From IMG/VR virus record IMGVR_UViG_3300025131_008632, positions 1 to 53,873 of that record: 53,873 nt of DNA. One strand, written 5' to 3'. The stretch's first letter is position 1, and the number at the start of each line of letters is the position of its first letter. Both the position numbers and the translations under genes were made by a program. The notes below the pieces were generated by a model. That model worked only from the letters and a program-made list of their open reading frames with translations. It was not told where the DNA came from and did no database searches. Below, one piece after another: positions 5,412-53,871 of the stretch. The DNA comes from a virus (lineage: Duplodnaviria; Caudoviricetes).

Positions 5412-8400
5412 TTAAAAGTCCAACTTAATCTTAAAGAGGAACTCATCAACCCACCGTTTTACAACAGGCTGTGCAAGGTTTGCTCTCATTATGACATTTA
5501 GATTTTCATCATGCAAATTAATGCTCGTAATGTAGTTAAATTCAGGGGCTGCGTCATTTGCATTCATTGTTGCAGATAGTGGGAGGTATGAGGGATTAGA
5601 AGAACTATTAGCTTGACTGCTTGGTGCAAATGCATTTACTGTCATAATATGCACCCTTTGCTTACCTGCAAAGTCACAATCAAAGTAATCTTTTCCGAAA
5701 TGCGCTATATGCGGTGATTTAACTATACCGACGCCTTCATCATAAAATATATTGCCAACATTTGACCATTGTGCTTGTTTTGTTAAGCAGTCTGCCCTGT
5801 ATAGTCCGCCATTTCCGTCGTCCCTTAATGTAATAGAGATCTTCCCGCTTGAGCCCGTGTAGTATGGGTCTCGAAGCCTAAACGTCCCTGCTTCTATTCT
5901 TTGACCATAAAATAAGTTTGATATGTCAATCAATCTAATCTCATTAGAAGAAGGATCAGCAGTTGTCTGGTATATCCAGAAATCATATGATGGGTCAATT
6001 ACACCGCCGTCAAAACGAAATCCAGGTCCACAGCCGCCATTCAGACCCCAGTTGATTCCCCATCCGTCAGGATTGTCAGGTGACACGTGATCTTGAAAGC
6101 CCCAGACGCGATTTACCAGCCCGTCGAACGTCGTTCGCCACGGATCAGATGTTGGTTTTTTTGTGTCTAACACTGCAGCTGGTGAACCTGTTAGGTGTGA
6201 TGTCTGTGCAGCATACTCCCAACCGCCATCAGCTTGTGACGTGTTATTATTAGCAAGTTTGTTCGATAATCCAGGTTGCCAGTCAAATAGATTTTGAAGC
6301 CCTATAAGTGTAAGATCTAATTCGCCATCGTCATCAACAAAAATAGACATGGGCTCCATGGCACCGCCACGGGGCTTAAATAGATCAGAATATTGTGGTG
6401 GGCGAAGCGGGTCTTTCATTGCTTGCGCAAAAGATGCTATTGTTTCTTTTTCACCTGGAGTAGAGCCCACACCGTCAGTTACAACAGAACCAGATAATAA
6501 CCACCCATAATTAGGCGCAAATAGACCGTTATCATTTGGAAGTAGCGCTAAGTTCCTCCTAACGAGTGAGCCAGTAGAATAAAAGTGGTCAAGTGCACCT
6601 GAAACAGGTGTAAGGAACTTTCCATCAACTTTAGCTGTATACTCATTAAATCGTTTCTTCTCCATAGCATCGGCAGGATATGTGCCCTCAGTGGTGCGAG
6701 CCCCGGACTCGCCCAACTGTTGTTCTGCATAGATTGAATTGACTCGACCCACATTCATCCAGTATCTATTGAATGCTCCGCGATGCTTTTGTGCGACAGA
6801 AGACGCAGTCAAATACATGAGACGTGGATAGTTTCCTGGCCTGAATCCAAATACGTCGCTCATTGCGTCAGGTACATTGACTGGTCCGCCAATAAACTCT
6901 CTACAGAAATTTTCCACATTTATAAGTGTTGCGTCTGTGGAAAAAGAAAGACCTGCATTAAAAGGACGACTTAACATCGATGCTGAGTTGTATTCTAACA
7001 CAGTGCTTTTATTCGGATACAATGCTTCAGACACCTTAGGCTCGTCGGGAGTACCAACATCTGGCGGATAATCAGAATTCTTGTTACCTACATGCAACAC
7101 CTGTTCAGAAAAACCGCCCCAGGTGTCTTCTCCAAAGTATCGGCTTCCAGGGCCGACTTCCAGTCCGTTAAGATAACCATTTAAAGCATACTCAAAACCT
7201 CTGGCAGCGTCGATGTCTTTTTTGAAACTCTGAACACAATTTAATAAAAAAGACCTATTGGGTGACTCCTTGACAAAAAATGGTGGGAGGTAAAACAATA
7301 GTGAAGTATCAGATGATTCAGCTCTAAAGGTGTGTTGCTCCTTGAGGATTGTTTCTTTACCCACGTCATCGGGTGTACCGTCGCCCGGATAGAGCGGGTT
7401 TTGTGTCAAACCGTCTTCTAAATATCTTGGACTAGGATAGCCCGTCGAATTATCAATAGTGTCTGCATGCGAAGTGAGTGACATGGACCTTGAGTATGCA
7501 AGCTTTGTTCCGGGCCCCTCAATTGATCCTGTGACAATATCTTCTAAGGACCTATACCTATCATAGATCTTAATCTCGTGAATCTCAGCGTTAAGCTGTG
7601 AATAAAATCCAAAATCTGTGGGATCTGTACCTGCAAGTTGACCGTGCATGAGGCCGCCAAGGCTTGCTCTTCTTGCATACATACTGCCACTGGAAGAGGT
7701 ACCTCCTGGCCCAAGACCAAAGGCATCATTAGCAGCGCTGTGCCTGACAGGTACAATACCCTCATTTATTGATGCAGTAAGATTAAAAAAGTTATACAGC
7801 CTACTTTCTTGTGGGCATAATGATCCAGTTCCTGCACCTTCATAAAAATTACCAATTACCAGTATGTCAGGATCGGGGACACCTTTTTGATCTTCTGCTG
7901 TTTGTTTCTGGGTGCCTAGCGCAATAGATGTTGCAGTTCTCTCAACAACACCTTGAGCATCAGCTGGACTGTCATAAGTCGGGGTAGCGTTTATGGCTTG
8001 GCGCATATTAGCTACAGGTAGTTGAGGTGCTATTGACATGGAAGGGACATAAATTGTACCTCTTTCCTCGCCGTCAATGATAAATGTACCTGTTCCGTGG
8101 TTTACTCTTTCTGTCCCCCACCGAATACCAACGTAGTGCCAGTGATTGCGCTTGAGTGAGTTGTCGTCAGATACAAACATTAAATCGTCTGTGTGTTGTG
8201 CCTCATTACTTGTTGTTAGAACATTTGAATTCGCACTAAGTCTGACGCTTCTTGGACGAATCTCAGCTGAGTGAGAAAGTTGCAACATGATTCTGTAACC
8301 GTCAGTAAGACCGCTCGCGTCAACTGAAGAACCCGGTACAAGTGAAATTGCGAACACTGTCGGCATGTGCATGATTGTGCCCACATTAAAGGGCTTTGTC

Positions 8401-9464
8401 ACATACATTCCGTCTGATACATCTCCTGTGCGCTCGTTGGTGTATCTTGGATTAATCCAGAACTCAAATGTAAACGAGCCAGTGGGTGTGTATGGACCAC
8501 GGCCCGCGCGAAGCCCAGGTAGCGTGTCAGGAGCTCTTTCTCTGTAATCTAACTCTTTGTAATTCCAATGCGTAGGTACTTTATCCCAACCTGCTTGGCG
8601 ATGTGGGTGATCTAACCCAAAAGGTGCTGACATGGGTGGTATTGCACCTGTTGAATTATTATAAATCAAACACGCGCCATCAGGCATGCCTGACCCAGTA
8701 AAGAAGTTAAGCGTGTGATAATTCTTATATGCAAACTGAGAGTCAGTATAGCGACCCGCATTCATGGGCATTAGGGTATTTCGTATAAAATCTTTCAACC
8801 CTCGTGCTGAACCACTTGGGCTTGTTACATATGTTCCTGCCTCAGCAGGATAATGATCATCATTATTTTTTGCTCTAGTACCTAACTGTTCATACCTGTA
8901 GGGTGGCCTAAAGATCTTTATCTCTTTCTTTTTTCTGTTTCTAGCAGGCTGGCGACGCTGGTTTATGATACCGGGTTGCCCGTCGGATTCGTAACCAGGA
9001 CCAAGTTCGATTGGTGTGTAACCGCCACTTGAAGACATTGGTCCTACATTAAGCTCGCCCTCAGCCATTCCTACAAATGTATACATTGCACCGGACATGT
9101 TTGTGCCTAGTGGAATTTCACCTAAATCATTACCATATAATTTAGTAAAATAATCACCAAATTCGTAAGGGCTTAGACCTACATATTCTTCTGTCTCTAA
9201 AAAAGGTTCAGTCTTGATTGTTGTCCCAAGCGTTCCATCAGCTTCAAACTTAACAAACATTCCTTGGGGAAAGTCTTTAAATACAGGACTAGGTCTAGGT
9301 ACAACACTAATGGAACCTGTGATTCCATCATTAAAACCATGTTTAGCTGTAAGGACATTCTCACCGGGTGGCAGATCCATTGCACCAGAAGAGTAGGACC
9401 TACTTGGATGGGTCTGCAGAGATGTGAGTTCAATCAACTCTTTATGAACTTTAAAGATTCCCAT
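5412..9464 (-). CDS. Large virion/baseplate-associated protein with LamG (concanavalin A-like) domain and conserved C-terminal domain
   Basis: FTFEFWINP, NHWHYVGIRW, FIIDG and EIHEIKIYDRYRS are LamG-like. The C-terminus NSSSNPSY...YITSINLHDENLNVIMRANLAQPVVK...KLDF is paralogous to the 415-aa neighbour. Confidence 0.7.
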   Translation of the reverse strand: MGIFKVHKELIELTSLQTHPSRSYSSGAMDLPPGENVLTAKHGFNDGITGSISVVPRPSPVFKDFPQGMFVKFEADGTLGTTIKTEPFLETEEYVGLSPYEFGDYFTKLYGNDLGEIPLGTNMSGAMYTFVGMAEGELNVGPMSSSGGYTPIELGPGYESDGQPGIINQRRQPARNRKKKEIKIFRPPYRYEQLGTRAKNNDDHYPAEAGTYVTSPSGSARGLKDFIRNTLMPMNAGRYTDSQFAYKNYHTLNFFTGSGMPDGACLIYNNSTGAIPPMSAPFGLDHPHRQAGWDKVPTHWNYKELDYRERAPDTLPGLRAGRGPYTPTGSFTFEFWINPRYTNERTGDVSDGMYVTKPFNVGTIMHMPTVFAISLVPGSSVDASGLTDGYRIMLQLSHSAEIRPRSVRLSANSNVLTTSNEAQHTDDLMFVSDDNSLKRNHWHYVGIRWGTERVNHGTGTFIIDGEERGTIYVPSMSIAPQLPVANMRQAINATPTYDSPADAQGVVERTATSIALGTQKQTAEDQKGVPDPDILVIGNFYEGAGTGSLCPQESRLYNFFNLTASINEGIVPVRHSAANDAFGLGPGGTSSSGSMYARRASLGGLMHGQLAGTDPTDFGFYSQLNAEIHEIKIYDRYRSLEDIVTGSIEGPGTKLAYSRSMSLTSHADTIDNSTGYPSPRYLEDGLTQNPLYPGDGTPDDVGKETILKEQHTFRAESSDTSLLFYLPPFFVKESPNRSFLLNCVQSFKKDIDAARGFEYALNGYLNGLEVGPGSRYFGEDTWGGFSEQVLHVGNKNSDYPPDVGTPDEPKVSEALYPNKSTVLEYNSASMLSRPFNAGLSFSTDATLINVENFCREFIGGPVNVPDAMSDVFGFRPGNYPRLMYLTASSVAQKHRGAFNRYWMNVGRVNSIYAEQQLGESGARTTEGTYPADAMEKKRFNEYTAKVDGKFLTPVSGALDHFYSTGSLVRRNLALLPNDNGLFAPNYGWLLSGSVVTDGVGSTPGEKETIASFAQAMKDPLRPPQYSDLFKPRGGAMEPMSIFVDDDGELDLTLIGLQNLFDWQPGLSNKLANNNTSQADGGWEYAAQTSHLTGSPAAVLDTKKPTSDPWRTTFDGLVNRVWGFQDHVSPDNPDGWGINWGLNGGCGPGFRFDGGVIDPSYDFWIYQTTADPSSNEIRLIDISNLFYGQRIEAGTFRLRDPYYTGSSGKISITLRDDGNGGLYRADCLTKQAQWSNVGNIFYDEGVGIVKSPHIAHFGKDYFDCDFAGKQRVHIMTVNAFAPSSQANSSSNPSYLPLSATMNANDAAPEFNYITSINLHDENLNVIMRANLAQPVVKRWVDEFLFKIKLDF

Positions 9465-9504: not shown

Positions 9505-10752
9505 CTAGAAGTCTAGTCGTATCCTCATTGTGATGTCTTTCTCATCATTCTTTTCAACAGGCCTGCTTAACTTAGCAACTGCTAGTAAGTTATTTCTAGC
9601 ATCATATAAGCCTATTGTAGTAATAAATGAGAATGCACGTTGTGTCACCTCTTCACCTTCATCAATAACTCTAATACGACCTGTACTGTCTGTGAATGTT
9701 GGATTAGAAGAGTAGTTAAACTCATCAGCAGTTGCCCTGCAGAATATTAGTGTTGAGTTAATATTTGTGACATTTTGGAATGTCATAGCTGTAAGTGAGC
9801 CTGAGCTGAATCTAGTCGCACAAATATGATCAAGAATATTATCCATGCTTGCTGACACAATGAAGTCAGGAATAAATTTAGCAAATACGTTCCCACCTAC
9901 ACCGCCTATTGTTGATTGTCCAACAGCGGCATCATTATATGCAGTAGCGTTCATCGAATCAATAGTTCCTGAGACTTTTTGACTTGCTGACATAACTTTA
10001 GTCATATCTAGCACTACAATTCCTTGATCATAAAAGATCGTCCCAACTTTATTAGCTGTGTCAGCAGAGTTGACAAGGTTACCAACCTCACCACCAACAG
10101 CCATTTCTCTTGCAGTAGCAGATCCGACATCTGTGTAGATTGCTGAGCCTGAAACTGATGTTAAATTAAGGTTTGGCCCATCGCCATTAAAACTCAGTTG
10201 TGGTTTACCAGCATACGGTGCCCTCGATGCAGATTGAAAGAATTTCATTGCAAAAGTTTCACGCTTAATCTCATCTCTTGCAAAAAGACGTTTAAAGCAA
10301 ATAAATACAGCAGAATCTATTCCACCTGTTGATGGAGGCTGTGTTGTTCCAAAGGGGGTTGTAAACTGATATGTTGCATCCCCTAATAACATTTGTGCAA
10401 ACTGTCTGTATATGTTGATTTTTTCACGCATCATCAATGTCTGTGAAGGAAACAATAGCTTTCCTGCACTGTCAATTCCGCTAGATGCTGTCGCAACAAC
10501 ACCACTACCTGAATAAATGCCCATTGTAACATCAAATACTGGATTTGCTGTCTGCAAACTAAAGTCTTGATCGTAGACTGTTTGAAACAATGATGATGTC
10601 ACGCCGGGACCTATCCCTCCGGTAACAAAAACTTGATATTTTTTTCTTGTTGACGATCCAGAAATATCTTCTTGGATAACGTCGATCAACTGATTTAAAA
10701 CAGATCTACTTGTTTTTATATCAGCTGAAGATAACTCCTTGTAGGTTGCCAT
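9505..10752 (-). CDS. Virion structural protein, C-terminal paralog of 5412-9464
   Basis: VGTIFYDQGIVV (versus VGNIFYDEGVGI) and EFNYSSNPTF...FITTIGLYDARNNLLAVAKLSRPVEK...RLDF; lies in the structural module. Confidence 0.7.
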   Translation of the reverse strand: MATYKELSSADIKTSRSVLNQLIDVIQEDISGSSTRKKYQVFVTGGIGPGVTSSLFQTVYDQDFSLQTANPVFDVTMGIYSGSGVVATASSGIDSAGKLLFPSQTLMMREKINIYRQFAQMLLGDATYQFTTPFGTTQPPSTGGIDSAVFICFKRLFARDEIKRETFAMKFFQSASRAPYAGKPQLSFNGDGPNLNLTSVSGSAIYTDVGSATAREMAVGGEVGNLVNSADTANKVGTIFYDQGIVVLDMTKVMSASQKVSGTIDSMNATAYNDAAVGQSTIGGVGGNVFAKFIPDFIVSASMDNILDHICATRFSSGSLTAMTFQNVTNINSTLIFCRATADEFNYSSNPTFTDSTGRIRVIDEGEEVTQRAFSFITTIGLYDARNNLLAVAKLSRPVEKNDEKDITMRIRLDF

Positions 10753-10786: not shown

Positions 10787-11497
10787 CTAAGCTGTTTTGC
10801 TAATCTCTGCTAAAAGATTTTTTTGCGCACCTGATTGTTGACCTGTCACCTGGATATACGACCTTATTTTTGTCTTATCTCCCGCAACACCGTATGTATC
10901 AAAAAGTGTTGTTGTCAATGAAGACTTGACATTTAATGTAAATGTAAGTTTCGTTCCTCCTGTGGACTCATCCACAGAGGCATCTCTAGGTAAAATATAT
11001 GTTGCAATATTGTTTGTGTCTATGGAGACTGGACGTGCAGTTGAGCCTAATTGCATAAAAAGATTGTTGACTTCAACTCTAAAGTTTTGATCCTTAAGTT
11101 CTGACGGGACAAGTTCATCGCCGCCGATCGTCTGTTTGAGCGTGACAGTCTGAGATCTACTACTAATGATATTAAGCGAAAATGTATCAGATGTTAAGCT
11201 TTCTAGTGTAAAGCTAGGCAACCTGATCAATGTAGGCGTTGACAGTGATAAGTTCTTGTGCATTTGTGAAATATCACCGTTTGTGAGTGCCTCTAGAACA
11301 GGTGTATTTTTTATAATTTTTTCTTTTCCAACGGTCCGTCCATACTTTTGAATAATTGTATAATCAACTTCATCATCAGAAAAAGCAAACTTAACTATAT
11401 TAAAAGACCCGTCATTTCTTGCAAGAAGCTCTCTGCCCACGTCTGTTAAAACTGCATCTAGTATAACGTTGTTCGTAGATTGATCTAAAAGACCCAT
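10787..11497 (-). CDS. Virion structural protein (probable start ATG 11497, MGLLDQSTNN)
   Basis: AGGAG Shine-Dalgarno and ATATTTA motif precede ATG 11497. N-terminal ILDAVLTDVGRELLA...KFAFSDDEVDY is paralogous to the N-terminus of 23737-24978. Confidence 0.7.
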   Translation of the reverse strand: MGLLDQSTNNVILDAVLTDVGRELLARNDGSFNIVKFAFSDDEVDYTIIQKYGRTVGKEKIIKNTPVLEALTNGDISQMHKNLSLSTPTLIRLPSFTLESLTSDTFSLNIISSRSQTVTLKQTIGGDELVPSELKDQNFRVEVNNLFMQLGSTARPVSIDTNNIATYILPRDASVDESTGGTKLTFTLNVKSSLTTTLFDTYGVAGDKTKIRSYIQVTGQQSGAQKNLLAEISKTA

Positions 11498-11513
11498 AAT
11501 ATTCTCCTGGTTG

Positions 11514-11520
11514 TAAATAT
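11514..11520 (-). promoter_or_regulatory. Putative late promoter ATATTTA (context GGTATATTTA)
   Basis: 16 nt upstream of ATG 11497; the 10-mer GGTATATTTA is identical to the one upstream of the gp25-like gene. Confidence 0.62.
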
Positions 11521-11555
11521 ACCTTTCAACGTGCAAATAAGTAAAATAATTTTAT

Positions 11556-14093
11556 CTATAAGACTGGAAATGGAAGTTCGCCGCCCCTTCCCTCTACGAT
11601 CGTATCACCATCCATTCGATCGACAGCTGAAGTTTCAGGCAATGCGCCGGTTCTACTATCTTTAACATAGATATCAATTGTTGTTGACTTTTGAACGTCT
11701 GTATTTATTATATTAAGTTTATATACTGGTGTCGCACCGGATGCTTGATTATCTGATCCTTCTTTTGTCCCACCAAATTTAACAACATCACGTGTCTCAA
11801 GATCAGATGTGCCTGTATAAAAATCTCCTGTGCCTACTTGTGAAGGATCAATACCTGCAACTTGATAAAAGGGTGGGCCGAAAGCTATAGTTAGTCGATC
11901 CATTCCTGATACTTTTACTAAGCTGCTAAATTGTGAAGCATCAGTGTTATCATTGAATTGTGATTGATCATACTGTACTGTAAGGTTAAGGTTTGGATAG
12001 CATAATGGCGATCCTGAAGGCGAGATATATCTTACTACAATTGCGTTCTTCCTTATATCGAAAGATACTTCAAATTGCTGGGATAGATTAGAAGAATACC
12101 CTCTTGCATCAACAGATGTAACAGCATAAATTGATGTTGCATTTTTGTCAAAAGATGCATCAACATATCTAGTTACAGGTGCGCCCGGTGTTGATTCATA
12201 CAAATGTGGTGCCCATTGTCTTGTGTCAAACGCAGATGGTGTATACAAGAAGCTAGTGTAGTCACCAGGGTTGAAAGCATCACTAAAGTCGTACTCTTTT
12301 AACAATTCAAATGGTTTATCATAAGCATTTCCGGTGTCGACAATCTCAACACGTTGATCCATTGAACCGAGTTCAAGATCTGAGTATTCACCCATACCGG
12401 GTGGCAGGATATTCTTATTTGTATTTCTCATGACTTCTCCTGCAAATTCATCCATTGTGTGAGACCGCCTCCAGACGCGAAACTTTTTAATATCTCGCTG
12501 AGGATTTGTTGGAAAGTCCCAACTTAAAATTAGATTTTCATTTACATAATCATACAGAAAAGTTAAGTTTTGAGGTGCTGGAGGGGGGATTTTTTCTATT
12601 GCTAATGCCTCAACAAAATTTGTTCCACGACTAGCAACTAAAATTCCCACACGTGCGATTTTATCCTCTTCATGTTGAACATTTACTGCATCCATCTCAA
12701 TATAATAAACAGCCCTCACACGATAAATTACCCGAGCACCATACGGTACGTTACCATCTCTTATTTCAGTTGCAATTGTTGACCCGCTTGAACCGAACGC
12801 GCCGTCAACTTCACCAGAAGTATTTAAAACCTCAACAATCATAGCATTGTTTTTGATATTTACAGCTATACCACCCATTGAATCAGTATTGTATGACATT
12901 TTTTTGTCTATTAAAAATCCAGCGAGGCCGATTCCAGAAGCGCCGCCGCCGAAGCCTTGTCTATCATAATCAGGACCGGCGCTTGGCGGGTCTGTATAGT
13001 CTGTAAAAGTAAAACCATCATCGACGTCTGTATAGTGAACTAAGTTCTCAGCCTTTACTTGCATACCAAACTGTTTTGTGTCAGCAGAAAGATTGGTCGG
13101 ATCTGCCCGGGCAACTTCTTGAATTCCATTAAAAAAACCTAGAACTGTCGTGCCATCGCCAGAACGCACTAAATCATCTGCATAAGGTGTCTCCACGCTC
13201 AATGATGCATTATTGACTAAATCTGCTGCATGTGTATTTTTTAGCAACACATGCTGAGCAACGTGTCTAGTTTCATCAAATATATCTGAGTGATTCTGAA
13301 TCTGATCGTCTGAAATATAAGTTATGCCTTGTGTTTGAAAATTTTTCATTAAACTGGTGAGTTCTAGTTTAGCTGCAGCAATATTAGATCCTGCAGATAC
13401 GCTTCCACCAGATGTCAACCATGTACTGATCAAACCTGTAAGCTCATCAGCTGAATGGTACGACGATAAGTTGTCAATCAATCTGTTAGCTGTTTGAAGA
13501 GTGGGATCATCGTCATCTCTTGCAGAAGAGATAGCGTTTTCTAATGAAACACTTAACGATGAATTAATTACTGGCATAGACGACTTCATTTCTCTATAGA
13601 AATTTTCATCAACTTGCAAATCCTGCATTGTCAGGCCGGAATACATTTGATTTCCCATAACTTCTGCATAAATAACTCGATCTATGTGATCAGAAATATT
13701 AACTGGAACGTCTGTAATTAACTCGACTCCCAGCTTTTCAGCAACTTCTGAGATATTTGGTGCTGCCCAGTTCAATGTCATCTGTCGAGGTAGCGTAAAT
13801 CTAGCCTGAGCTAGACGTAATTCACGCTGAGCATTTATCCAGCTAGAGGTTGATCCCTCTTGAGGAATTACTATATAAGTTGCGCTTACATTGTTTTGAA
13901 CTACTGATGTGGTGGCCGGAGAGGTCGCAGTACCCGCGGTATACACAGAGCTAGTTTGTCCTGATGATGTTGCACCATTGAAAATATTTTCATCTCTGGT
14001 GTAAAAGTTATATGTAAATTCAACTGACGGTGATTGTGGTTCAGGTAAATTTACAACAAGCGCTGATTTACTTATTTCTGATACGTATCCCAT
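11556..14093 (-). CDS. Acidic virion-associated protein with fibronectin type III-like domain(s)
   Basis: PPPAPQNL...LILSWDFP...IKKFRVWRR...YVD...IYAVTSVDARGYSSNLS follows the FN3 pattern; lies in the structural module. Confidence 0.6.
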   Translation of the reverse strand: MGYVSEISKSALVVNLPEPQSPSVEFTYNFYTRDENIFNGATSSGQTSSVYTAGTATSPATTSVVQNNVSATYIVIPQEGSTSSWINAQRELRLAQARFTLPRQMTLNWAAPNISEVAEKLGVELITDVPVNISDHIDRVIYAEVMGNQMYSGLTMQDLQVDENFYREMKSSMPVINSSLSVSLENAISSARDDDDPTLQTANRLIDNLSSYHSADELTGLISTWLTSGGSVSAGSNIAAAKLELTSLMKNFQTQGITYISDDQIQNHSDIFDETRHVAQHVLLKNTHAADLVNNASLSVETPYADDLVRSGDGTTVLGFFNGIQEVARADPTNLSADTKQFGMQVKAENLVHYTDVDDGFTFTDYTDPPSAGPDYDRQGFGGGASGIGLAGFLIDKKMSYNTDSMGGIAVNIKNNAMIVEVLNTSGEVDGAFGSSGSTIATEIRDGNVPYGARVIYRVRAVYYIEMDAVNVQHEEDKIARVGILVASRGTNFVEALAIEKIPPPAPQNLTFLYDYVNENLILSWDFPTNPQRDIKKFRVWRRSHTMDEFAGEVMRNTNKNILPPGMGEYSDLELGSMDQRVEIVDTGNAYDKPFELLKEYDFSDAFNPGDYTSFLYTPSAFDTRQWAPHLYESTPGAPVTRYVDASFDKNATSIYAVTSVDARGYSSNLSQQFEVSFDIRKNAIVVRYISPSGSPLCYPNLNLTVQYDQSQFNDNTDASQFSSLVKVSGMDRLTIAFGPPFYQVAGIDPSQVGTGDFYTGTSDLETRDVVKFGGTKEGSDNQASGATPVYKLNIINTDVQKSTTIDIYVKDSRTGALPETSAVDRMDGDTIVEGRGGELPFPVL

Positions 14094-14111
14094 TTTAATC
14101 TCTCACTTTAC

Positions 14112-14118
14112 TAATTAT
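14112..14118 (-). promoter_or_regulatory. Putative late promoter ATAATTA
   Basis: 18 nt upstream of ATG 14093 in an intergenic gap. Confidence 0.58.
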
Positions 14119-14156
14119 TGGGTAAAATATTTTTACTTTAACGCTGATCGATTTCA

Positions 14157-20597: not shown

Positions 20598-20654
20598 TAC
20601 AACACCTCAACTTTTTGAAAATTTGTTTGATAATAAAGTTTTTTCATAACAATT

Positions 20655-22625: not shown

Positions 22626-22626
22626 T

Positions 22627-23733: not shown

Positions 23734-23736
23734 TAT

Positions 23737-24978: not shown

Positions 24979-24998
24979 AATTTTCTATCTCTCTTCAT

Positions 24999-45007: not shown

Positions 45008-45028
45008 AAAATAACTTCCCAAGGGTTT

Positions 45029-46354: not shown

Positions 46355-47191
46355 TTAAACACAATGCTCTGTATTCTTATATGAACAATAAGTGCAAGAA
46401 TTTCTATTTTTGAGAAATATTTTTTTTCTAACTGAAGAAATCATGTTGTTTAAAATCTTATTTGCTTTTTCTAGTGCCTTAGGCCCTACAGACACTGTTA
46501 CCAGTTCACAGATATTCCCTGGTTTACCCCCTCGTTTTAAAAGGATAAAACCACACCTTATGTCTTTAAGTGGAACAGAGTGCTTTCTAGACCAAAAATG
46601 TTTATATAATATTAGCTGAGCTGTCATTAGTATATCTTGCTTCTTCTGCCTTCGCCAACCATAAGACCCGGCAGTTTTCCAGTCAACAATCCAGTAATTG
46701 TAACCTTCGCCCTTTTTCTTCGGGACTTTTATAACGCCGTCAATATAACCCTTGAAGTTCAACTCTTTATTTTCAACTGTCTCATAAAGCATTTCCTCTG
46801 CTTCAAAGCATTCCCAGCTAGGAAAAGTCTCATCAAGAAATGATGGTACATCGTTCCACATATTTTCTGCCCACTGGCACCATGTGTCTATACCTACGTT
46901 TGATGATTTTAAGTACCAGCCTGGTTGCTTCGCTATCCATTCTGGATTATCAAAACCATATTTGTCCCAAGCTACTCTAATCTCTTTTAATATCTTTTCT
47001 TTGTCTATTGTCTTTGACTTTAGATATGTTTCGCACCCTTCGTGTACTGCAGTCCCAAAATCTAAAAAAGGTGAGGGTTCAAACATGTCTATTTTATCAA
47101 TATAGATTAGCTTATGTCTATAAGCGCACTCTTTCCAAGCTTTAACTTCTGAGAATGAAACGTGGGGTTTACCAGTAGGAAAATTTATCAT
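46355..47191 (-). CDS. Cas4/AddB-like PD-(D/E)xK exonuclease with four-Cys Fe-S ligands
   Basis: SFS...ECAY (first Cys), FGTAVH, FKGYIDG, IVDWKT, QLILY, and C-terminal CTYC...C. Confidence 0.88.
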   Translation of the reverse strand: MINFPTGKPHVSFSEVKAWKECAYRHKLIYIDKIDMFEPSPFLDFGTAVHEGCETYLKSKTIDKEKILKEIRVAWDKYGFDNPEWIAKQPGWYLKSSNVGIDTWCQWAENMWNDVPSFLDETFPSWECFEAEEMLYETVENKELNFKGYIDGVIKVPKKKGEGYNYWIVDWKTAGSYGWRRQKKQDILMTAQLILYKHFWSRKHSVPLKDIRCGFILLKRGGKPGNICELVTVSVGPKALEKANKILNNMISSVRKKIFLKNRNSCTYCSYKNTEHCV

Positions 47192-47263: not shown

Positions 47264-48109
47264 TTAGTTTTCGCTTACAGCGCCTTTAATCTCTGACCAG
47301 TCGTAGTTTGTTCTTACTTCTAGATTTTTCTGCCAAGCAGACTCAAGAACGAGTGTTTTTACACCTAGTTCTTCTGCCATGTGCATCATTGCATTTAAGT
47401 CTTTTGGAAAGCATTTTCCACCAAAACCACAGTCTCCATCATGTCCTGGAACATCGATGTGTGAATTTCCAATTCTACCATCTGTAATAAATCCGTGCAA
47501 AGCATCATTCCAGTTTGCGCCTACAGCATCGCTGATCTGTCTCATCTCATTCATATAAGACACTTTAACTGCGAAAAAACAGTTTGCCATATACTTAATC
47601 AGCTGTGATGTTGCAAAGTCTGTTTTTATCACAGGGGTGAATGGAAATCTTTGTTTATACAAGTCTTCGACTTTATTGCAATTCTCTTTAGAGCCACCGA
47701 GAACTACTCGCGCTGTATTGATAAAATCTAATCTTGCTTTTCGCTCAGTTAAAAACTCTGGATTAAAGACAAAATTTAAGTTTTTATATTTTTCTGCATA
47801 TTTTTCTACTGTCCCTGGTACAACGGTCGATTTAATTACAATTACATTGTCTCTTTCATTAACTCTTGAAATATTTTCAATTACAGAGTCCATAATAGAA
47901 AGATCAATATCGCCGCCCTCGACTTGTCGCATAGGGGTGGGAACAGAAACAAAAACAATATCTGATGAGTTTAATGTTTCACTAAAAGTATGGGTTGATT
48001 TTTCAGGTAATACATCGTAAATAAAAATATCATTCACATGCAAAAGAAAGCCTGCTGATATTGCAGACCCTACAAACCCGTTTCCAATAATTCCTATGTT
48101 GTAGTTCAT
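47264..48109 (-). CDS. ugd: UDP-glucose/GDP-mannose 6-dehydrogenase family protein, short form lacking the C-terminal domain
   Basis: GIIGNGFVG Rossmann motif, VPTP, IKSTVVPGT, NPEFL, K...N, and GFGGKCFPKD with the catalytic Cys. Confidence 0.9.
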   Translation of the reverse strand: MNYNIGIIGNGFVGSAISAGFLLHVNDIFIYDVLPEKSTHTFSETLNSSDIVFVSVPTPMRQVEGGDIDLSIMDSVIENISRVNERDNVIVIKSTVVPGTVEKYAEKYKNLNFVFNPEFLTERKARLDFINTARVVLGGSKENCNKVEDLYKQRFPFTPVIKTDFATSQLIKYMANCFFAVKVSYMNEMRQISDAVGANWNDALHGFITDGRIGNSHIDVPGHDGDCGFGGKCFPKDLNAMMHMAEELGVKTLVLESAWQKNLEVRTNYDWSEIKGAVSEN

Positions 48110-48131
48110 TTAAGTACCTCTATTCACAATA

Positions 48132-48160
48132 ATCATAAACAGCAAGACACGTGTTTTAAA
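48132..48160 (-). promoter_or_regulatory. Possible sigma70-like promoter TTTAAA-N17-TATGAT upstream of ugd
   Basis: Intergenic, 17-nt spacer, followed by a GAGGT Shine-Dalgarno. Confidence 0.4.
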
Positions 48161-48171
48161 CCTTTAAAAGT

Positions 48172-48708
48172 TTACTGCTCATTGTTTTCTATCCATTCAG
48201 ACTTTAGTAATGAAAGGACATGACCGTCAAGGTACTTTCCATTCTTAAAAACATTTTGTCTTAAAGTACCCTCGTCAATAAACCCTATTTTTCTATAGAT
48301 ATCCAGCGCTTTATTGTTAGAATACACTTCACACCAAATCTTATTCAAGTTAAGTTCTTCAAACCCATATCTTACTAAAGTTCTTAGAGCATCGCTTCCG
48401 ATTCCTTTTCCTCTCATGCTCATGTCGCCCACGTATATCGCAAATTCAGCTTTTCTAGCTTGCCAGTCGATATAGTAAAGTCCAGTATGTCCAATAAGCT
48501 TTTGAGTTTCGGAATCATGTATTTCAAAGTCATATTGATTAGGGTTGTTATGCACTCTTTTTTGATACCACTCTTCTTGCATTATGCTAGTGATCTCTCT
48601 ATGGGTTCTAAAATACTTTCTAAGTTCTGGATTATTTCTCCATTTTCTTAACTGTTCTATTGATTCTGGTTGAACACCAGTTAAATAACATTTTTTACCT
48701 ATAATCAT
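48172..48708 (-). CDS. GNAT N-acetyltransferase, PseH-like (amino-sugar N-acyltransferase)
   Basis: WRNNPELRKYF...EEWY, RGKGIG, FEELNLNKIWCEV, YRKIGF.EG; lies in a NeuB cluster. Confidence 0.8.
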   Translation of the reverse strand: MIIGKKCYLTGVQPESIEQLRKWRNNPELRKYFRTHREITSIMQEEWYQKRVHNNPNQYDFEIHDSETQKLIGHTGLYYIDWQARKAEFAIYVGDMSMRGKGIGSDALRTLVRYGFEELNLNKIWCEVYSNNKALDIYRKIGFIDEGTLRQNVFKNGKYLDGHVLSLLKSEWIENNEQ

Positions 48709-49364
48709 TATAAAACCTCCCTTAAAAGCATGAACCTTTCAGCGCGCTCGACTCCAGACTCAGAACCTGCAACAAGTGCAAGCCTGTCACAATTATCATA
48801 AGATCTGGGATGTGGATGTTGCCTCATCTCACTGTTATAAACACTTAGAGCTTCAAATTTTTTTTCATTATAGTTTGAGATATTAAAGTATGTGTTGGGC
48901 ATAAACTGTTTGATTGGATTCCACTCTGAAGATGAAGGGACTTCATATGCTAAAATTTTAATTCCAGAAAATCTTTCCAGCCCTCTAAAAGCAGTCAGTG
49001 TTGCTTGACATACTATTCTATGATCTACGTTTAAACAATAAGGTGAGTGTGTAAAAACAATATCTGGTACAAAATTATTTTCATCTACAAACTTTTCTAT
49101 TTTTTTTGTTACTTCAAGGATGGGCACTTGATCCATTTTATTGTCTGGGAAATCGTGACTTACCCATTCTTTAATTCCTAATATTCCACATACCTGCCCT
49201 AAGGTATCTCGTCTATCATCTTTGTTATCGTCAAACCTTGCACTGCCACCGTCAGTAAACGTGATCAGCTTTATTTCATTTCCTTCTGCAGATAATCTAG
49301 CTATTGTCCCGCCGCAGCCCAGTGTTTCATCATCAGGATGGGCAGCTAAAACTAAAATTTTCAT
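48708..49364 (-). CDS. PIG-L/LmbE family N-acetyl-sugar deacetylase
   Basis: AHPDDE...GGTI zinc motif, NVDH, YEVPSSSEW and AERF. Confidence 0.92.
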   Translation of the reverse strand: MKILVLAAHPDDETLGCGGTIARLSAEGNEIKLITFTDGGSARFDDNKDDRRDTLGQVCGILGIKEWVSHDFPDNKMDQVPILEVTKKIEKFVDENNFVPDIVFTHSPYCLNVDHRIVCQATLTAFRGLERFSGIKILAYEVPSSSEWNPIKQFMPNTYFNISNYNEKKFEALSVYNSEMRQHPHPRSYDNCDRLALVAGSESGVERAERFMLLREVL

Positions 49365-50035
49365 GTTACTTTCTCAATCAGTGCATCGCATCTTATTTTT
49401 TTATTTTCAATGGAAGCTCTAGAAAACTTTATTAAAAAATTACCTAGTTTTACAGACGCATTTGGATAACCTTCAGCATCTAACATTCTAATGTGATCAT
49501 AAAACTCTATGACCTCATTAATACTATTTACTGGGATTGAAGATGTTTTTCTTCTTTTGTTATATTGTGCATCACTTGCTTCTTGTGCGATTGGTTTTAT
49601 ATTTTTTTCCGTACAGTTCCTAATGAGATTTTTTGCTTGATCTCCTATACTCAACCAAATGTCTGTTAAACTACCTTGAAGAGTGACAGACCTACTACAG
49701 TAAACAGGGCCTGCATCGACGTCGCCTGTCATTTTTATCGCATTCACTTTTGAGTTTTTTACACCCTTAAGTATCTGATTTTGTATTGGGCTGCCGCCTT
49801 TGTCATATGGTAAATTTGAAGTATGAAAAGTCACACATCTAAAATTTTTCCACACACTTTCACTAACGATGTGTGACCAATGAAAGAAAAAAATCCAATC
49901 AGGGTTGACATCGAGCGCAGGATTTAAGTCTTTCTTACTTGAAACCCGTAGCCAATTAACATTTTTTTGTCTTTTTAAATCTTTAAAGACTAAGTTAGAC
50001 CACATGTTATCTTTTGATACAAAAATACAATTCAT
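49361..50035 (-). CDS. Sugar N-formyltransferase (methionyl-tRNA formyltransferase-like); probable start ATG 50035
   Basis: FFFHWSHIV, FHTSNLPYDKGGSPIQNQI, DAGPVY and IRMLDAEGYP; ATGA overlap with the neuB stop. Confidence 0.88.
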   Translation of the reverse strand: MNCIFVSKDNMWSNLVFKDLKRQKNVNWLRVSSKKDLNPALDVNPDWIFFFHWSHIVSESVWKNFRCVTFHTSNLPYDKGGSPIQNQILKGVKNSKVNAIKMTGDVDAGPVYCSRSVTLQGSLTDIWLSIGDQAKNLIRNCTEKNIKPIAQEASDAQYNKRRKTSSIPVNSINEVIEFYDHIRMLDAEGYPNASVKLGNFLIKFSRASIENKKIRCDALIEKVT

Positions 50036-51048
50036 CTTCTTGTTCTCACAATATTGTCCCAAGTAATCAGATCATCTTCTTCGATTGTATTTCTAGCTAC
50101 ATAGCATGACTGAATATTATAAAACTCCTTGGCAGGTACACAGTTTTCTAGGAATGGGCGCTTTGTAGTTACATTATCAAATGTAATAAGTTCACCCTTC
50201 TTTATTTCACGCTTAGACACCACAGATCTTGTTGCTTTTATAAAACTATCTTCACTTGTTGTTGTCTTTGCTTTTTTAATACCCAGGCAATTTTCAGTAG
50301 TTCTAATGTTTTCAACCATTGCAGCAAGTTCGTCAGGTTCGATAGCAAAAGGATGGTCTGGGCCTGGCATAGTACGATCAAGAGTGTAGTGTTTTTCAAT
50401 GGTTGTCGCACCCAATCCAACTGCAATCGGAGGTGCTAAAATACCAAGCGTGTGATCTGATAGTCCTACACTTATCGGTAAACGTAGCTTTTTTATTTCT
50501 TGTATTTGACCCAAGTTTATATCTTCAAATGGCGTTGGGTATGCATTGTTACCATGTAGAAATGTAATGTCCGGATCAGAGTTTTCTTCTTTTACCCAGT
50601 TATAAATTTCTTCTATCATTCTAAGATCAACACCAATACCTGCAGTAATAATCAGTGGTAGTTTTGTTGATGCAGCGTATCTAACTATTCTAGGATCAGT
50701 AGCTTCAAAACCTGCAATTTTAAATCTTTTTACTCCAATCTCATAGAGTTCATCAATTGCTTCCTTGTCAAAAGGTGTTGACATAAACTCAATACCTAAG
50801 TCATCACAATATAATTTTAAATCTTTTTGCCACTCTCTTGGCAACTCTATATCTTTTATCAATTTATTGATATTTGTGTATCCAGCAAAGTCAGGTGTCG
50901 ACTTAGAGTAAAGTTTCTCAGAAGAGTAAGTTTGAAACTTAACAATATCACACTTTGCACGAACAGCAGCTTTAATAAGATTGACTGCAATATTCCAGTC
51001 TCTATTATGATTTGCACCTGCTTCTGCTATAACTGTAACATTTTTCAT
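50032..51048 (-). CDS. neuB: N-acetylneuraminate/legionaminate/pseudaminate synthase (NeuB/LegI/PseI family) with C-terminal SAF/AFP domain
   Basis: IAEAGANHN, VKFQ, STPFD, YPTP, GLSDHTLG, IEKHYTLDR...GPDH and KRP motifs. Confidence 0.95.
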   Translation of the reverse strand: MKNVTVIAEAGANHNRDWNIAVNLIKAAVRAKCDIVKFQTYSSEKLYSKSTPDFAGYTNINKLIKDIELPREWQKDLKLYCDDLGIEFMSTPFDKEAIDELYEIGVKRFKIAGFEATDPRIVRYAASTKLPLIITAGIGVDLRMIEEIYNWVKEENSDPDITFLHGNNAYPTPFEDINLGQIQEIKKLRLPISVGLSDHTLGILAPPIAVGLGATTIEKHYTLDRTMPGPDHPFAIEPDELAAMVENIRTTENCLGIKKAKTTTSEDSFIKATRSVVSKREIKKGELITFDNVTTKRPFLENCVPAKEFYNIQSCYVARNTIEEDDLITWDNIVRTRR

Positions 51049-51869
51049 TATTCTACAACTAGACTGTCAATATATTTTTTATAAAAAGTATCTAGATCAA
51101 TTAAGTTCATCAGATCTTCTATGTTATCTAAAAAGAAATCAAAATTATATTCTAGTTCTTTATCAAATAGTTTTTGTGAACCCTTTCTAATAATACCCAA
51201 AGAATCTTCTGACCCCCATGGCGGGACTAGTATTGACATATCTAAATCTTTTCTTGTTGCACGAAGATCTGCAAATGCACGCCAACAACATCCCGTTCTA
51301 TGGGGATCTTTTTCTAAGTCTCTTGTAAGAGGCACCATATCGTGTAGGATAATAGTGCCATTATCAGTCAAGTGATTTAGTGCACCATTAATATCTCTTA
51401 AAACTTGCCCGTGCTCATGCCAACCATCAATAAAAACAATGTCATAAAGTTTTTCTGTATCTTCAATACTTTCAAAAAAGTCGTCTGACGTTAGTTTATA
51501 GTGTGTTGAGCCGTTAGGTAGTTCAACATCTTCTGGTATGTTTGGGTCAGGGTCAACAGAGTCTTTCTTTTCACAGTTTACTTTATAATATGTTGATCTT
51601 TCTCCTGCAAATGGTTGTCCTCCAATTTCAAGGTAACTTTTGCATTTATGAAGATCTATAAACTTGTTTATTACCGCCTCTTTGTCTTCAAGCCACACTC
51701 TATTTTGATGGTATTCTTGCCACACTGCCATTGCATTATTTCTCTGTAATGCAAAAACGGGCTTCCAATCATCAACTCCTGTGTGAACATTTCTTGCACT
51801 TCTTAACAACTGCCCGAAACACGTTTTGTCATCTTTTTTGTTATCAATAACTTGGCTCGTATAGCTCAT
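51048..51869 (-). CDS. Class I SAM-dependent methyltransferase (Methyltransf_24-like), probably glycan-modifying
   Basis: SYLEIG, TSDDFF, and YDIVFIDGWHE...RDI..AL..L...GTIILHD. Confidence 0.85.
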   Translation of the reverse strand: MSYTSQVIDNKKDDKTCFGQLLRSARNVHTGVDDWKPVFALQRNNAMAVWQEYHQNRVWLEDKEAVINKFIDLHKCKSYLEIGGQPFAGERSTYYKVNCEKKDSVDPDPNIPEDVELPNGSTHYKLTSDDFFESIEDTEKLYDIVFIDGWHEHGQVLRDINGALNHLTDNGTIILHDMVPLTRDLEKDPHRTGCCWRAFADLRATRKDLDMSILVPPWGSEDSLGIIRKGSQKLFDKELEYNFDFFLDNIEDLMNLIDLDTFYKKYIDSLVVE

Positions 51870-51878
51870 AATAATTTC

Positions 51879-53129
51879 CTAAGTATTTTTTCTAAAAACA
51901 GACACTGATCTTTTTCCTTTTAGAACACTGTCAATTTTATTCATATTATCTTTCACTGTACTGAATGCTTCATCAGCTGCCTCTAATGTTCTGAGAATAT
52001 CGTATTCTGTGTGAGCAAAGTTTATATACAGTACGTTTGAAAATAAAATTCCTTGTCTTACCATTTCTTGATAAAATAAGTCTCTCATCCCAGCAGAATC
52101 TTTATAATCATTTGAGAATGTTAAGTTATGCCTTGGCCCAGAACCTGCAAATACTATGTCTAAATCATGCTTGCTTGCAAGTTCACTCATTCCTGCTTCA
52201 AATAAACTACCAAGGTGCCAAATGTGATTGTAATCTTTGTTTTGCAATTCTTTGATAGTTGCAATTGATGCTGCGAGAGAGAGGCACTCACCTCCAAATG
52301 TCATAGAGAAAAAAGCATGATCCAACTCTTTCATGTACTCAGCCTTACCTGCTATTGCTGATATAGGCATTCCATTGGCCATCGCCTTGCCGAAACACGC
52401 TAAATCTGGTGTTACGTTATAATACTTTTGAGCTCCGCCTAAATCCCACCTGAAACCTGTAACAACTTCATCAAAAATAAGCAAGGCTCCATAAGTACGA
52501 CACAAACGCTTGACGCCCTCTAAGAAGCCAGCAGCCGGTGGTGTTAATGCTTGCACCTCCATTATAACTGCTGCGCATTCATTTGCCTTCAAAACATTGT
52601 GTAAACTATCAAGATTATTGTATTCAAAGTCATGTACATAATCTTTTAGCACGCTAGGTACACCATAGGGTCGTAATGAAGCAGCATGCCAATCACCCCA
52701 GCCGTGATAACCACACTTAGCAATATGCTCACGACCAGTATAAGATCTAGCAATTCTAACTGCAGCAAGGTCAGCATCTGTACCATTTTTTCCAAATCTA
52801 ACTTGCTCAGCACAAGGGACAACGTCAACAATTAATTGTGCTAATTCTTGTTCTAGATAAGTGGGTAGAGAAAAAATTACACCTTTGTCTAACTGATCTT
52901 TAATTGCTTTGTTTGTTGACTCGTGATTGTAACCCAATATAACTGGACCAAGTCCGCACATAAAGTCAAGATAATCTTTGCCATCTTCGCATGTAATGTA
53001 TGCACCTGATGCTTTTAAGGCGAACTTGGGATACACACCATCGACAAACTGGTCTGGGCACTTACTCATTGTTTGCGTGCCTCTGGGCATAAGCCTAATA
53101 GCATTTTCCCAACTAAGATTCTCTGTCAT
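51879..53129 (-). CDS. Class III PLP aminotransferase (glutamate-1-semialdehyde aminomutase-like), probably sugar-related
   Basis: ILGYNH, KNGTDA, YHGWGDW, LIFDEVVTGFR, PDLACFGKAMANG (PLP Lys) and TFGGE. Confidence 0.9.
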   Translation of the reverse strand: MTENLSWENAIRLMPRGTQTMSKCPDQFVDGVYPKFALKASGAYITCEDGKDYLDFMCGLGPVILGYNHESTNKAIKDQLDKGVIFSLPTYLEQELAQLIVDVVPCAEQVRFGKNGTDADLAAVRIARSYTGREHIAKCGYHGWGDWHAASLRPYGVPSVLKDYVHDFEYNNLDSLHNVLKANECAAVIMEVQALTPPAAGFLEGVKRLCRTYGALLIFDEVVTGFRWDLGGAQKYYNVTPDLACFGKAMANGMPISAIAGKAEYMKELDHAFFSMTFGGECLSLAASIATIKELQNKDYNHIWHLGSLFEAGMSELASKHDLDIVFAGSGPRHNLTFSNDYKDSAGMRDLFYQEMVRQGILFSNVLYINFAHTEYDILRTLEAADEAFSTVKDNMNKIDSVLKGKRSVSVFRKNT

Positions 53130-53151
53130 ACTTTATCCATTTTAATTGATT

Positions 53152-53181
53152 ATTTTAACAAAAAAACGTAGTATTTATCAA
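53152..53181 (-). promoter_or_regulatory. Possible sigma70-like promoter TTGATA-N18, TGn-TAAAAT
   Basis: Intergenic, upstream of ATG 53129; extended -10. The AT-rich context lowers confidence. Confidence 0.45.
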
Positions 53182-53190
53182 AATTTATTT

Positions 53191-53871
53191 TTAGATAAGA
53201 ATCTTCAAAAGATTAGCAGCACTATCATAACTATTTGTAGGCCCGTTCTCAATAATGTGTTTCCATTGAGTAATATAAGAGTTTTCAATATCATTGGCTG
53301 TAATAACTTGTCTATGGATATGGCCACTACTATCTACGCATTCAAAATGCCTGATATAGTCTCTGCTACTATATGATAGACAAAAGTTTACTAATTTATT
53401 CTCATATTCCCACGTTATAAATGCAGAGTCACTTGCATCATTTGTAATATTGTCAAACAGCTTCTTTTCAAAATTTTTGTGACTTATAGGTAGCCCTAGT
53501 ATGGACATTACATAATCAGGCTCGTGGATAAAGTCTAGTATAACACCGCCGCCTTGATTTTTATTTGCACTGTATGAGTCTAAGTGATCTGTGTTTGGTC
53601 GCCACTTTGGCAAATACGACATTGAAACAATATTGATTATTCTGCTATTTTTTGACAGTTTTTTAATATTCTTGCAAGCTTCTGTAAATCTAATATTGCA
53701 TCCCACATGAACTTTTTTAAAATCAATCTTATCTCTGTAATTTTCAATTCTTTCAATTGATGTGTCAAGTGGCTTCTCAATGAATATTAAATCTTTGATG
53801 TTTTTAAATTTAGATGCAACTTCTAAGTGCGAAGCGCTAGGTGTGCAGACTACAAGTATATTAAAATGATC
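53191..53871 (-). CDS. Gfo/Idh/MocA family NAD-dependent oxidoreductase (5' part beyond the right edge)
   Basis: The frame is open to the window end: ...ILVVCTPSASHLE...IFIEKPL...VGCNIRF...GGGVILDFIHE. Confidence 0.88.
   Translation of the reverse strand, partial: DHFNILVVCTPSASHLEVASKFKNIKDLIFIEKPLDTSIERIENYRDKIDFKKVHVGCNIRFTEACKNIKKLSKNSRIINIVSMSYLPKWRPNTDHLDSYSANKNQGGGVILDFIHEPDYVMSILGLPISHKNFEKKLFDNITNDASDSAFITWEYENKLVNFCLSYSSRDYIRHFECVDSSGHIHRQVITANDIENSYITQWKHIIENGPTNSYDSAANLLKILI

Follow-up and report, generated by a model that had tools for sequence, protein, structure and literature searches.

Very few cases are known in which a phage glycosylates its own virion with its own enzymes. 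In the chlorovirus PBCV-1, a eukaryotic virus, virus-encoded enzymes glycosylate the major capsid protein through N-linked sugars, and in Gram-positive bacteria the GtfA/GtfB pair, of which GtfB is non-catalytic, acts as the O-GlcNAc transferase of serine-rich repeat adhesins. The autotransporter heptosyltransferases Aah and TibC, as well as EarP, which modifies EF-P, work in the cytoplasm and recognise a strand-loop-strand element, and the general O-glycosylation system of Bacteroidota acts in the periplasm on the sequon D-(S/T)-(A/I/L/V/M/T). Glycosylation of mycobacteriophage virions was reportedly treated by Freeman et al. in Cell Host Microbe in 2023. A further report that summarises this work places glycans at the C-termini of the capsid and tail-tube subunits of mycobacteriophage virions (PMC12619734). 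Here we analyse IMGVR_UViG_3300025131_008632, positions 1 to 53,873, a stretch of Caudoviricetes virus DNA of 53,873 nucleotides (the window), in which several structural proteins are enriched in the tripeptide [ST][GA]S and which encodes two adjacent GT4 glycosyltransferases, designated GT-A and GT-B. Comparison of sequences supports the view that the tripeptide acts like a site under selection at the protein level, located on tail proteins and tracking the transferase pair, above all GT-B; this makes it a strong candidate for what would be the first protein glycosylation signal to be reported from phages.

The locus record used was the window alone, and all 36 open reading frames (ORFs) analysed in it lie on the minus strand. 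Motif counts in each were compared with the mean of 2000 composition-preserving shuffles. Five of the 36 ORFs were enriched (z 5.7 to 7.7) and 30 others were at expectation; summed over the five, 63 motifs were found vs 12.8 expected, a ratio of 4.9. The enriched proteins are those of 1350 amino acids (aa) (5412-9464; 14 motifs vs 2.71 expected, z 7.2; a weak, sub-cut-off match to Laminin_G_3), 415 aa (fibre-like, 9505-10752; 8 vs 1.35, z 6.1), 1240 aa (27692-31414; 15 vs 3.47, z 6.3), 1379 aa (a baseplate-periphery protein with a Laminin_G_3 domain, 31430-35569; 17 vs 3.42, z 7.7) and 510 aa (35569-37101, just downstream of the gene for a gp6-like baseplate protein; 9 vs 1.76, z 5.7). A sequence-only reading of the window had named six enriched proteins on the basis of manual counts. 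These counts were reproduced except for the 1379-aa protein, credited with 16, and the sixth protein, of 612 aa and rich in Ser, Thr and Gly (25851-27689), did not reach significance (7 vs 4.14, z 1.5, p 0.11). The four neighbours put forward as internal controls were as low as claimed, with 4 motifs vs 5.75 expected in the 2146-aa, 2 vs 2.00 in the 845-aa, 0 vs 1.31 in the 656-aa and 0 vs 1.45 in the 368-aa protein, and the gp6-like protein, which served as a further internal control, has 1 vs 1.26.

The signal is specific for the order and identity of the residues. In the five proteins TGS (22 vs 3.19) and SGS (23 vs 4.23) rank first and second in over-representation among all tripeptides, SAS and TAS lie about three-fold above expectation, with Ala in place of Gly at 3.3 times expectation, and AGS, GGS, NGS and DGS, found 2, 1, 1 and 0 times, are at or under expectation. 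Since the codons at the 63 sites are diverse, the commonest nine-base word being seen only 3 times, the enrichment must reside at the protein level, and a DNA-level motif or repeat unit can be ruled out; the sites are isolated and sit in unrelated contexts, as had been noted from the sequence alone. Paralogous repeats are likewise ruled out, as the enriched proteins have no mutual similarity beyond one C-terminal module, about 76 residues of the 415-aa protein that match the 1350-aa protein. The enrichment could in principle be a functionless by-product of composition, low complexity or shared ancestry, given that single Ser/Gly-rich proteins can reach high z values, such as a 597-aa protein of phage P-SSM2 and the 1053-aa spike of Flavobacterium phage immuto with its 53 sites, and that the many relatives discussed below are not independent samples. 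However, shuffling within 40-residue blocks, which keeps the local composition, still leaves z at 5.1 to 6.9, and scrambled motif orders give observed/expected ratios of only 1.1 to 1.7, near expectation, ruling out an artefact of low complexity or local composition; moreover, the enriched proteins are unrelated in sequence, their motif residues are more conserved than like residues elsewhere, and four deep lineages are enriched mostly at different positions. We regard the by-product explanation as largely refuted already and its remaining chance as very slight.

The pattern is maintained among metagenomic relatives. Relatives of the 1379-aa protein were found in IMG/VR at 22 loci (38-76% identity), and at all 22 both the 510-like (z 4.0-9.2) and the 1379-like proteins (z 4.6-10.6) are enriched, with 0-2 sites in the gp6-like protein of the same loci. 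In a second sample of 79 further loci (L104-L182), ORFs were flagged at z ≥3, which was the case for 63 of the 70 510-like ORFs (568 motifs vs 105.5 expected), for 49 of the 56 1379-like ORFs (612 vs 142.1) and for none of the 79 gp6-like ORFs, which are depleted (29 vs 83.1). GT-A is also motif-depleted (1 vs 7.2 expected), and the depletion in these two proteins could reflect either avoidance in non-substrates or mere shared ancestry. The clade is very common, with at least 591 gp6-like relatives in IMG/VR. Conservation of the Ser in the third motif position amounts to 0.62-0.65, as against 0.42-0.43 for Ser residues elsewhere, and TAS, SAS, TGS and SGS replace one another in conserved motif columns, including the partly conserved columns of the 510-aa protein. 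An alignment of 18 sequences of the 1379-aa family has 55 motif columns, about 12 of them kept in at least 11 sequences and 31 present in one or two; since columns present in no more than 3 of the 18 sequences contribute, per sequence, roughly as many motifs as chance would, most of the window-clade excess consists of old, conserved sites.

Beyond this clade, the gp6-like protein had matches in three genomes only, at about 30% identity: those of Microcystis phage Mel-JY01, of Flavobacterium phage immuto and of the uncultured LR756508 (484 kb). Rhodothermus phage RM378 was brought in through transferase homology. The 1379-aa protein had no match in the GenBank phage collection, and no PHROGs family was matched by any motif-enriched window protein. 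Flagged ORFs number 17 of 158 in Mel-JY01 and 10 of 116 in immuto, in both cases including the tail sheath and a cluster after the baseplate wedge, and 7 of 87 in RM378. In LR756508 only 4 of 252 ORFs are flagged, all weakly (maximum z 3.1), and its sheaths have 0 and 1 sites. Among T4 structural proteins none of 23 is flagged, and the values are 2 of 130 ORFs for P-SSM2 and 2 of 81 for S-PM2, with TGS and SGS top-ranked in neither. To rank tripeptides, tail clusters were defined by position, so that the motif was not used to pick the proteins. SGS (29 vs 4.0) and TGS (20 vs 2.7) rank first and second in the Mel-JY01 cluster, SGS first and TGS third in that of immuto, and TGS, TAS and SGS first, second and fifth in that of RM378; SGS and TGS are not near the top in the homologous cluster of LR756508 or in the remainder of each genome. 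The relatives of LR756508 comprise only 3 near-identical contigs and hence provide no further independent negatives. In immuto (MW353176), high counts occur in the annotated 1053-aa tail spike (97614-100775; 53 motifs vs 12.5 expected) and in a 373-aa hypothetical protein near the head-completion gene (135031-136152; 13 vs 1.8). The C-terminal module shared by the 415- and 1350-aa proteins, about 80-90 aa long, recurs in fibre-like ORFs of other phages, namely in five ORFs of Mel-JY01 (172.5-181.4 kb), one of RM378 and two each of immuto and LR756508.

The sites in the different lineages appear mostly at different places. The tail sheaths of Mel-JY01 and immuto carry their sites at non-coinciding positions, and the LR756508 sheath, despite sharing 47% identity with its Mel-JY01 counterpart, carries a single site vs 7 there, and none at the Mel-JY01 positions. 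Two of the 12 conserved columns of the window-clade 1379-aa family are motifs in Mel-JY01 and none in LR756508, although at 18-19% identity this alignment is uncertain. A conserved neck family has 3-4 sites in Mel-JY01, RM378 and G003, a 309-kb relative of the window that is 91% complete, with 1 site in immuto and none in LR756508. What the sites share is their surroundings: at the window sites the fraction of hydrophobic residues is 0.55 at position -1 and 0.48 at +1, vs a background of 0.32, and charged residues are scarce there; across the four enriched lineages the hydrophobic fraction at these two positions is 0.47-0.74 vs 0.32-0.40, and the charged fraction at -1 is 0.03-0.08.

The more complete genomes indicate on which proteins the motif occurs. 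Flagged ORFs in G003 number 19 of 232, namely one of two sheath paralogues, a neck/head-completion-like protein, a small-ORF cluster at 147-159 kb, the baseplate cluster and fibre-like proteins, including homologues of the window 1350- and 415-aa proteins; the remaining ORFs contain 103 motifs vs 88.1 expected. No flag falls on the major capsid protein, portal, terminase, protease or tube of G003, nor on the capsid and tube proteins of Mel-JY01 and immuto. All 27 sites in four sheaths of three phages lie in the variable middle region, and none within the C-terminal 210 or so residues that align to T4 gp18 448-651; we take the middle region of gp18 to form its outward-facing domains. The motif targets thus lie on the tail exterior, comprising outer regions of the sheath, the neck, the baseplate periphery and conserved fibre-like proteins. 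Tandem sheath paralogues are found both in G003 (137055-143240), where one has 7 sites and passes the flag and the other has 5 and does not, and in LR756508 (202.4-208.4 kb).

The low-count window proteins had been interpreted as internal or unmodified, and the assignment to the interior is not supported by their distribution. Two related genomes spanning the region lack homologues of the 2146-, 368- and 271-aa proteins, and their matches to the 845- and 656-aa proteins reach only 20-27% identity; being so poorly conserved among relatives, the depleted large proteins look like a variable, probably distal, fibre set, and the gp6-like protein of the inner baseplate is depleted too. The division between enriched and depleted proteins therefore looks like one between a conserved tail core and a variable fibre set more than one between exposed and internal proteins.

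The transferases GT-A (417 aa, 45029-46282) and GT-B (402 aa, 43814-45022), recognised already from the sequence alone, match PF00534 (Glycos_transf_1) at 51.7 and 38.2 bits, respectively (cut-off 26.4), and both match the Pfam family GT4-conflict above its cut-off. The E-x7-E motif, which belongs to the C-terminal domain of GT4 transferases, is intact in both and kept in their aligned homologues except the GT-B of RM378; to judge by their sequences, both window transferases look active. Their further matches are only generic (MshA, BshA, B736L and MSMEG_0565-type) and all fall far under equivalog cut-offs, and GT-B has no sequence match in the PDB. In a set of 5.8 billion proteins GT-B has 2930 relatives at E ≤1e-5, some labelled with a 'tara' source. 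No T4-type late promoter could be assigned to the transferases: there are 2 copies of TATAAATA against an expectation of 5.27, neither of them close to these genes, and inspection by eye of 14 upstream regions revealed no consensus.

Enrichment and the transferase pair occur together, as the sequence-only reading had led one to expect. Every motif-enriched lineage has both GT4 genes, which are adjacent wherever both occur, including in Mel-JY01, immuto and RM378. Among the first 22 loci the pair was detected in 8, upstream of the baseplate genes in all 8, and it lies upstream in 24 of 25 further loci with at least 9 kb of upstream sequence. GT-A homologues are found in Mel-JY01, immuto, RM378 and LR756508; in Mel-JY01 (PP395634, 83444-84911) the match is in two pieces annotated as two glycosyltransferase genes, and GT-A may be split there. 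A six-frame search did not find GT-B in LR756508, P-SSM2 or S-PM2, so that LR756508, which is not strongly enriched, keeps GT-A alone of the pair. A tree of terminase, capsid, sheath and tube (1442 columns) places LR756508 beside Mel-JY01 and immuto with a support of 83, within a group whose other members all carry the pair, and this nesting among pair-bearing lineages suggests a secondary loss of GT-B. Of the 232 G003 ORFs, considering those of at least 150 aa at BLAST sensitivity, only GT-B and the gene of a PhoH-like ATPase are present in Mel-JY01 and immuto and absent in LR756508.

This presence/absence profile bears on the possibility that the site is recognised by something else, such as a decoration protein, a chaperone of tail assembly or an enzyme that would phosphorylate or acylate it, with the pair serving host-envelope or other glycans. 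The link to the pair is correlative only, the pair is located away from the tail genes in three lineages, and these phages have large variable sugar clusters. On the other hand, no kinase or acyltransferase with the matching profile was seen among ORFs of that size at that sensitivity, and sheath, neck, baseplate and fibre-like proteins have no known common chaperone. We judge recognition by another factor to be quite unlikely.

Alternatively, the pair could glycosylate phage DNA, leaving the tripeptide enrichment unrelated to it. A PD-(D/E)XK nuclease gene (46355-47191) adjoins the pair in the window, in Mel-JY01 and in immuto, replication genes adjoin it in RM378, and the GT4-conflict match of both transferases is compatible with such a role. 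However, in the available part of a preprint on immuto DNA, analysis by liquid chromatography with ultraviolet detection and tandem mass spectrometry (LC-UV-MS/MS) lists only dA, dC, dT and formyl-dPreQ1, with dG fully replaced by formyl-dPreQ1, and that part reports no sugar-bearing nucleoside (bioRxiv 10.1101/2023.04.13.536721). Because the digest, as described there, contains these four nucleosides only, DNA is an unlikely acceptor in immuto. A DNA-modifying role would also leave the enrichment and its tracking of GT-B unexplained, and we consider it improbable.

The sugar-pathway genes upstream of the nuclease (47264-53871) encode a nucleotide-sugar dehydrogenase fragment, a PseH-like GNAT, a PIG-L deacetylase, a formyltransferase, a NeuB-family synthase, a methyltransferase, a class-III aminotransferase and a GFO/IDH/MocA oxidoreductase, the last gene being cut by the window end. 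The Ugd and NeuB-type genes named from the sequence alone are thus present, the former as a fragment: the ORF at 47264-48109 covers positions 67-297 of the 413-position nucleotide-sugar dehydrogenase profile, with the N-terminal nucleotide-binding start and the C-terminal domain missing from the match. The NeuB-family protein scores 234.6 bits against Pfam NeuB (cut-off 22.1) and has a SAF domain, and its scores for the subtypes are under the cut-offs (NeuB_NnaB 279 vs 399.65; PseI 242.7 vs 340.25). Nonulosonic acids are activated by a CMP-sugar synthetase; no cytidylyltransferase domain was found in the 36 window ORFs scanned, the window ending inside the sugar cluster. A glycan shield capped with a sialic-acid-like sugar, as had been proposed, is not supported by the comparison between phages, since a NeuB homologue is absent from the enriched Mel-JY01, immuto and RM378 and present in LR756508, which is not enriched; across lineages the sugar-pathway genes are not correlated with the motif. 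In the relatives G001 (57.8-69.1 kb) and G002 (50.2-74.0 kb), long runs of 210-350-aa ORFs upstream of the pair differ between the relatives and look like large variable sugar or transferase islands, some ORFs of which closely match LR756508 near 320 kb.

Considering that the tripeptide is specific, conserved, confined to tail proteins and found with the pair, O-glycosylation of [ST][GA]S on exposed tail surfaces is the most likely of the explanations weighed, with a structural turn and recognition by another factor both staying below it; on the sequence comparisons at hand we give it about an even chance. Of the original proposal of a sequon on virion proteins, a selected protein-level site on tail proteins that tracks GT-B has held up, and the glycosylation itself would be the likeliest reading of it. 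In the mechanism that we envisage, the acceptor would be the extended motif hydrophobic - Ser/Thr - Gly/Ala - Ser - hydrophobic, modified in the cytoplasm on folding or assembled tail proteins by the two adjacent phage transferases. GT-B is the component that tracks the motif, and GT-A would probably add or extend the sugar, with donors that differ from phage to phage and would be supplied by the phage's own variable sugar-pathway genes, so that a glycan coat may form on the tail surface. The scheme as a whole, in which common aquatic, mostly jumbo, T4-related phages would use two-enzyme GT4 O-glycosylation of a hairpin-tip sequon over the tail exterior and not the head, with sugar from their own island, and in which LR756508 would represent a natural knock-out that lost its second transferase and then its sites, is more tentative, and we rate it as somewhat short of even.

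The strongest competing explanation for the sites themselves is a structural motif, a favoured tight turn between two beta strands that is inherited and re-used without modification. Structural mapping, which had been expected to place the motifs in exposed loops, gave a mixed answer. The AlphaFold model of the 510-aa protein is poor (mean predicted local distance difference test score, pLDDT, 59.8) and its sites fall in mixed or low-confidence places, and the model of the Laminin_G_3 region of the 1379-aa protein (residues 150-430) has usable confidence at about residues 28-195 of the segment (pLDDT 70-93). In this model strands 76-85 and 88-97 are connected by a two-residue hairpin that is closed by one SGS, an IGSGS site lies directly after a strand, an FSGS site extends from a loop into the first residue of the strand that follows, and two further sites are in low-confidence loops. 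As far as the model goes, such positions fit exposed turns, and they fit a structural turn motif equally well, as do the hydrophobic residues at -1 and +1 in all four lineages. One site overlaps the conserved Gly of F-x-G-x-[IL]-D-E-x-R, which we take to be the Laminin_G_3 signature, and the location of most of the window-clade excess in conserved columns also fits a structural role. Against a turn, the pattern is missing from the beta-rich tail proteins, whether homologous or analogous, of T4, P-SSM2, S-PM2 and LR756508, as illustrated by the single site in the LR756508 sheath; the first position of x-G-S is limited to Ser or Thr, presumably unlike general turn preferences; the tolerance of Ala for Gly is a poor fit to a turn that requires Gly; and different lineages create sites anew at different positions. 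Taken together, these points make an unmodified turn unlikely, though it deserves more weight than the other alternatives.

Apart from the compatibility of flanks, modelled positions and conserved columns with a turn, other observations weigh against O-glycosylation. The case for it rests on comparative evidence and not on chemistry, and the association comprises four positive lineages and four negative genomes, of which LR756508 is the one related negative; the next node of the tree has a support of only 48. The homologous cluster of LR756508 retains a weak excess when the four tripeptides are summed (8 vs 3.5). Enriched ORFs are found in phages without GT-B, namely the 597-aa ORF of P-SSM2 (18953-20746; 20 vs 5.0) and a 567-aa ORF of S-PM2 (179513-181216; 8 vs 1.6), indicating that isolated enrichment is possible without this transferase. 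In RM378 the sheath is unflagged (1 vs 1.15) and the second Glu of E-x7-E in GT-B is His. The neighbours of the pair in Mel-JY01, immuto and RM378 are genes of DNA metabolism and not tail genes, and in the window the large Ser/Thr/Gly-rich fibre-like proteins, although probably exposed, are not enriched.

The remaining window genes complete the layout. The sugar-pathway block is followed by the nuclease, GT-A, GT-B, a weak match to a late sigma factor, the gp25-like (39012-39488; GPW_gp25 21.6 bits, below the cut-off of 27.2) and gp6-like (37112-39007; Baseplate_J) baseplate wedge genes, a stretch of some 32 kb with large structural ORFs (5412-37101) and a primase together with a fused Mre11/Rad50-like protein. 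The gp25-like protein is kept in 22 of 22 relatives. Within the structural region, the 1240-aa protein corresponds in relatives to two proteins, one of about 325 aa and a longer one, the 415-aa protein is 62% identical to proteins of G002 and G003, and a block of non-enriched ORFs (249, 845, 2146, 656, 368, 413 and 271 aa) spans 10787-25851. The 2146-aa protein of this block (14157-20597) contains an N-terminal HINT/intein-like domain at residues 41-182 (PT-HINT 42.3 bits, cut-off 27.7), which suggests that this giant fibre-like protein processes itself. The 1046-aa ORF at 286-3426 combines a calcineurin-like, Mre11-like phosphoesterase with SMC/SbcC-type, Rad50-like ATPase domains and represents a fused form of the T4 gp47/gp46 pair. 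Considering that related contigs reach 309 kb, with an estimated completeness of 91%, the window phage is probably a jumbo myovirus.

If the tripeptide is indeed an acceptor, no earlier sequon for protein glycosylation would be on record for phages, and a signal this short would make glycosylated phage proteins predictable from sequence. It would also provide a purpose for the large glycan gene islands of aquatic phages and a concrete role for transferases and sugar pathways usually annotated as cell-wall or DNA-modifying, and a tail coated with glycans might differ in adsorption, stability, grazing or recognition by host defences. The literature searched contained no short dispersed acceptor tripeptide or acceptor rule for phage virion glycosylation, no glycosylated sheath or tail proteins with a sequon, and nothing on Mel-JY01. 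The idea is directly testable because three cultured members exist: immuto, RM378 and Mel-JY01.

Compared with described systems, the proposed one resembles that of the mycobacteriophages in that virion proteins made in the cytoplasm would receive O-linked glycans from phage-encoded transferases and so acquire a surface coat, but it concerns other hosts and phage types, and its sites are scattered over sheath, neck, baseplate and fibre-like proteins, with no enrichment in capsid or tube. With PBCV-1 it would share a virus that brings its own cytoplasmic glycosylation enzymes and acceptor sites unlike cellular ones, and GT-A matches the PBCV-1 transferase B736L (PDB 3oy2) in sequence (E 3.3e-08, residues 187-313), a generic GT4 match; the PBCV-1 modification is, however, N-linked and directed at the major capsid protein of a eukaryotic virus. 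GtfA/GtfB likewise combine two adjacent GT4-type genes, cytoplasmic protein O-glycosylation and Ser-Ala-Ser-like acceptors, whereas both phage transferases keep E-x7-E and the phage sites are isolated tripeptides in folded beta-rich proteins instead of long Ser-rich repeats; the window showed no accessory Sec genes. The Bacteroidota sequon is also three residues long and O-linked, and Flavobacterium and Rhodothermus, the hosts of two of the phages, belong to groups related to that system, which acts in the periplasm, unlike the cytoplasm where virions assemble; its Asp rule does not hold here, because 0.47-0.74 of sites have a hydrophobic residue at -1 and only 0.03-0.08 a charged one. Aah, TibC and EarP differ from the phage transferases in enzyme family, acceptor residues and sugars, yet they place their modification on a short inter-strand loop, to which the hydrophobic flanks and the modelled hairpin of the phage motif may be compared.

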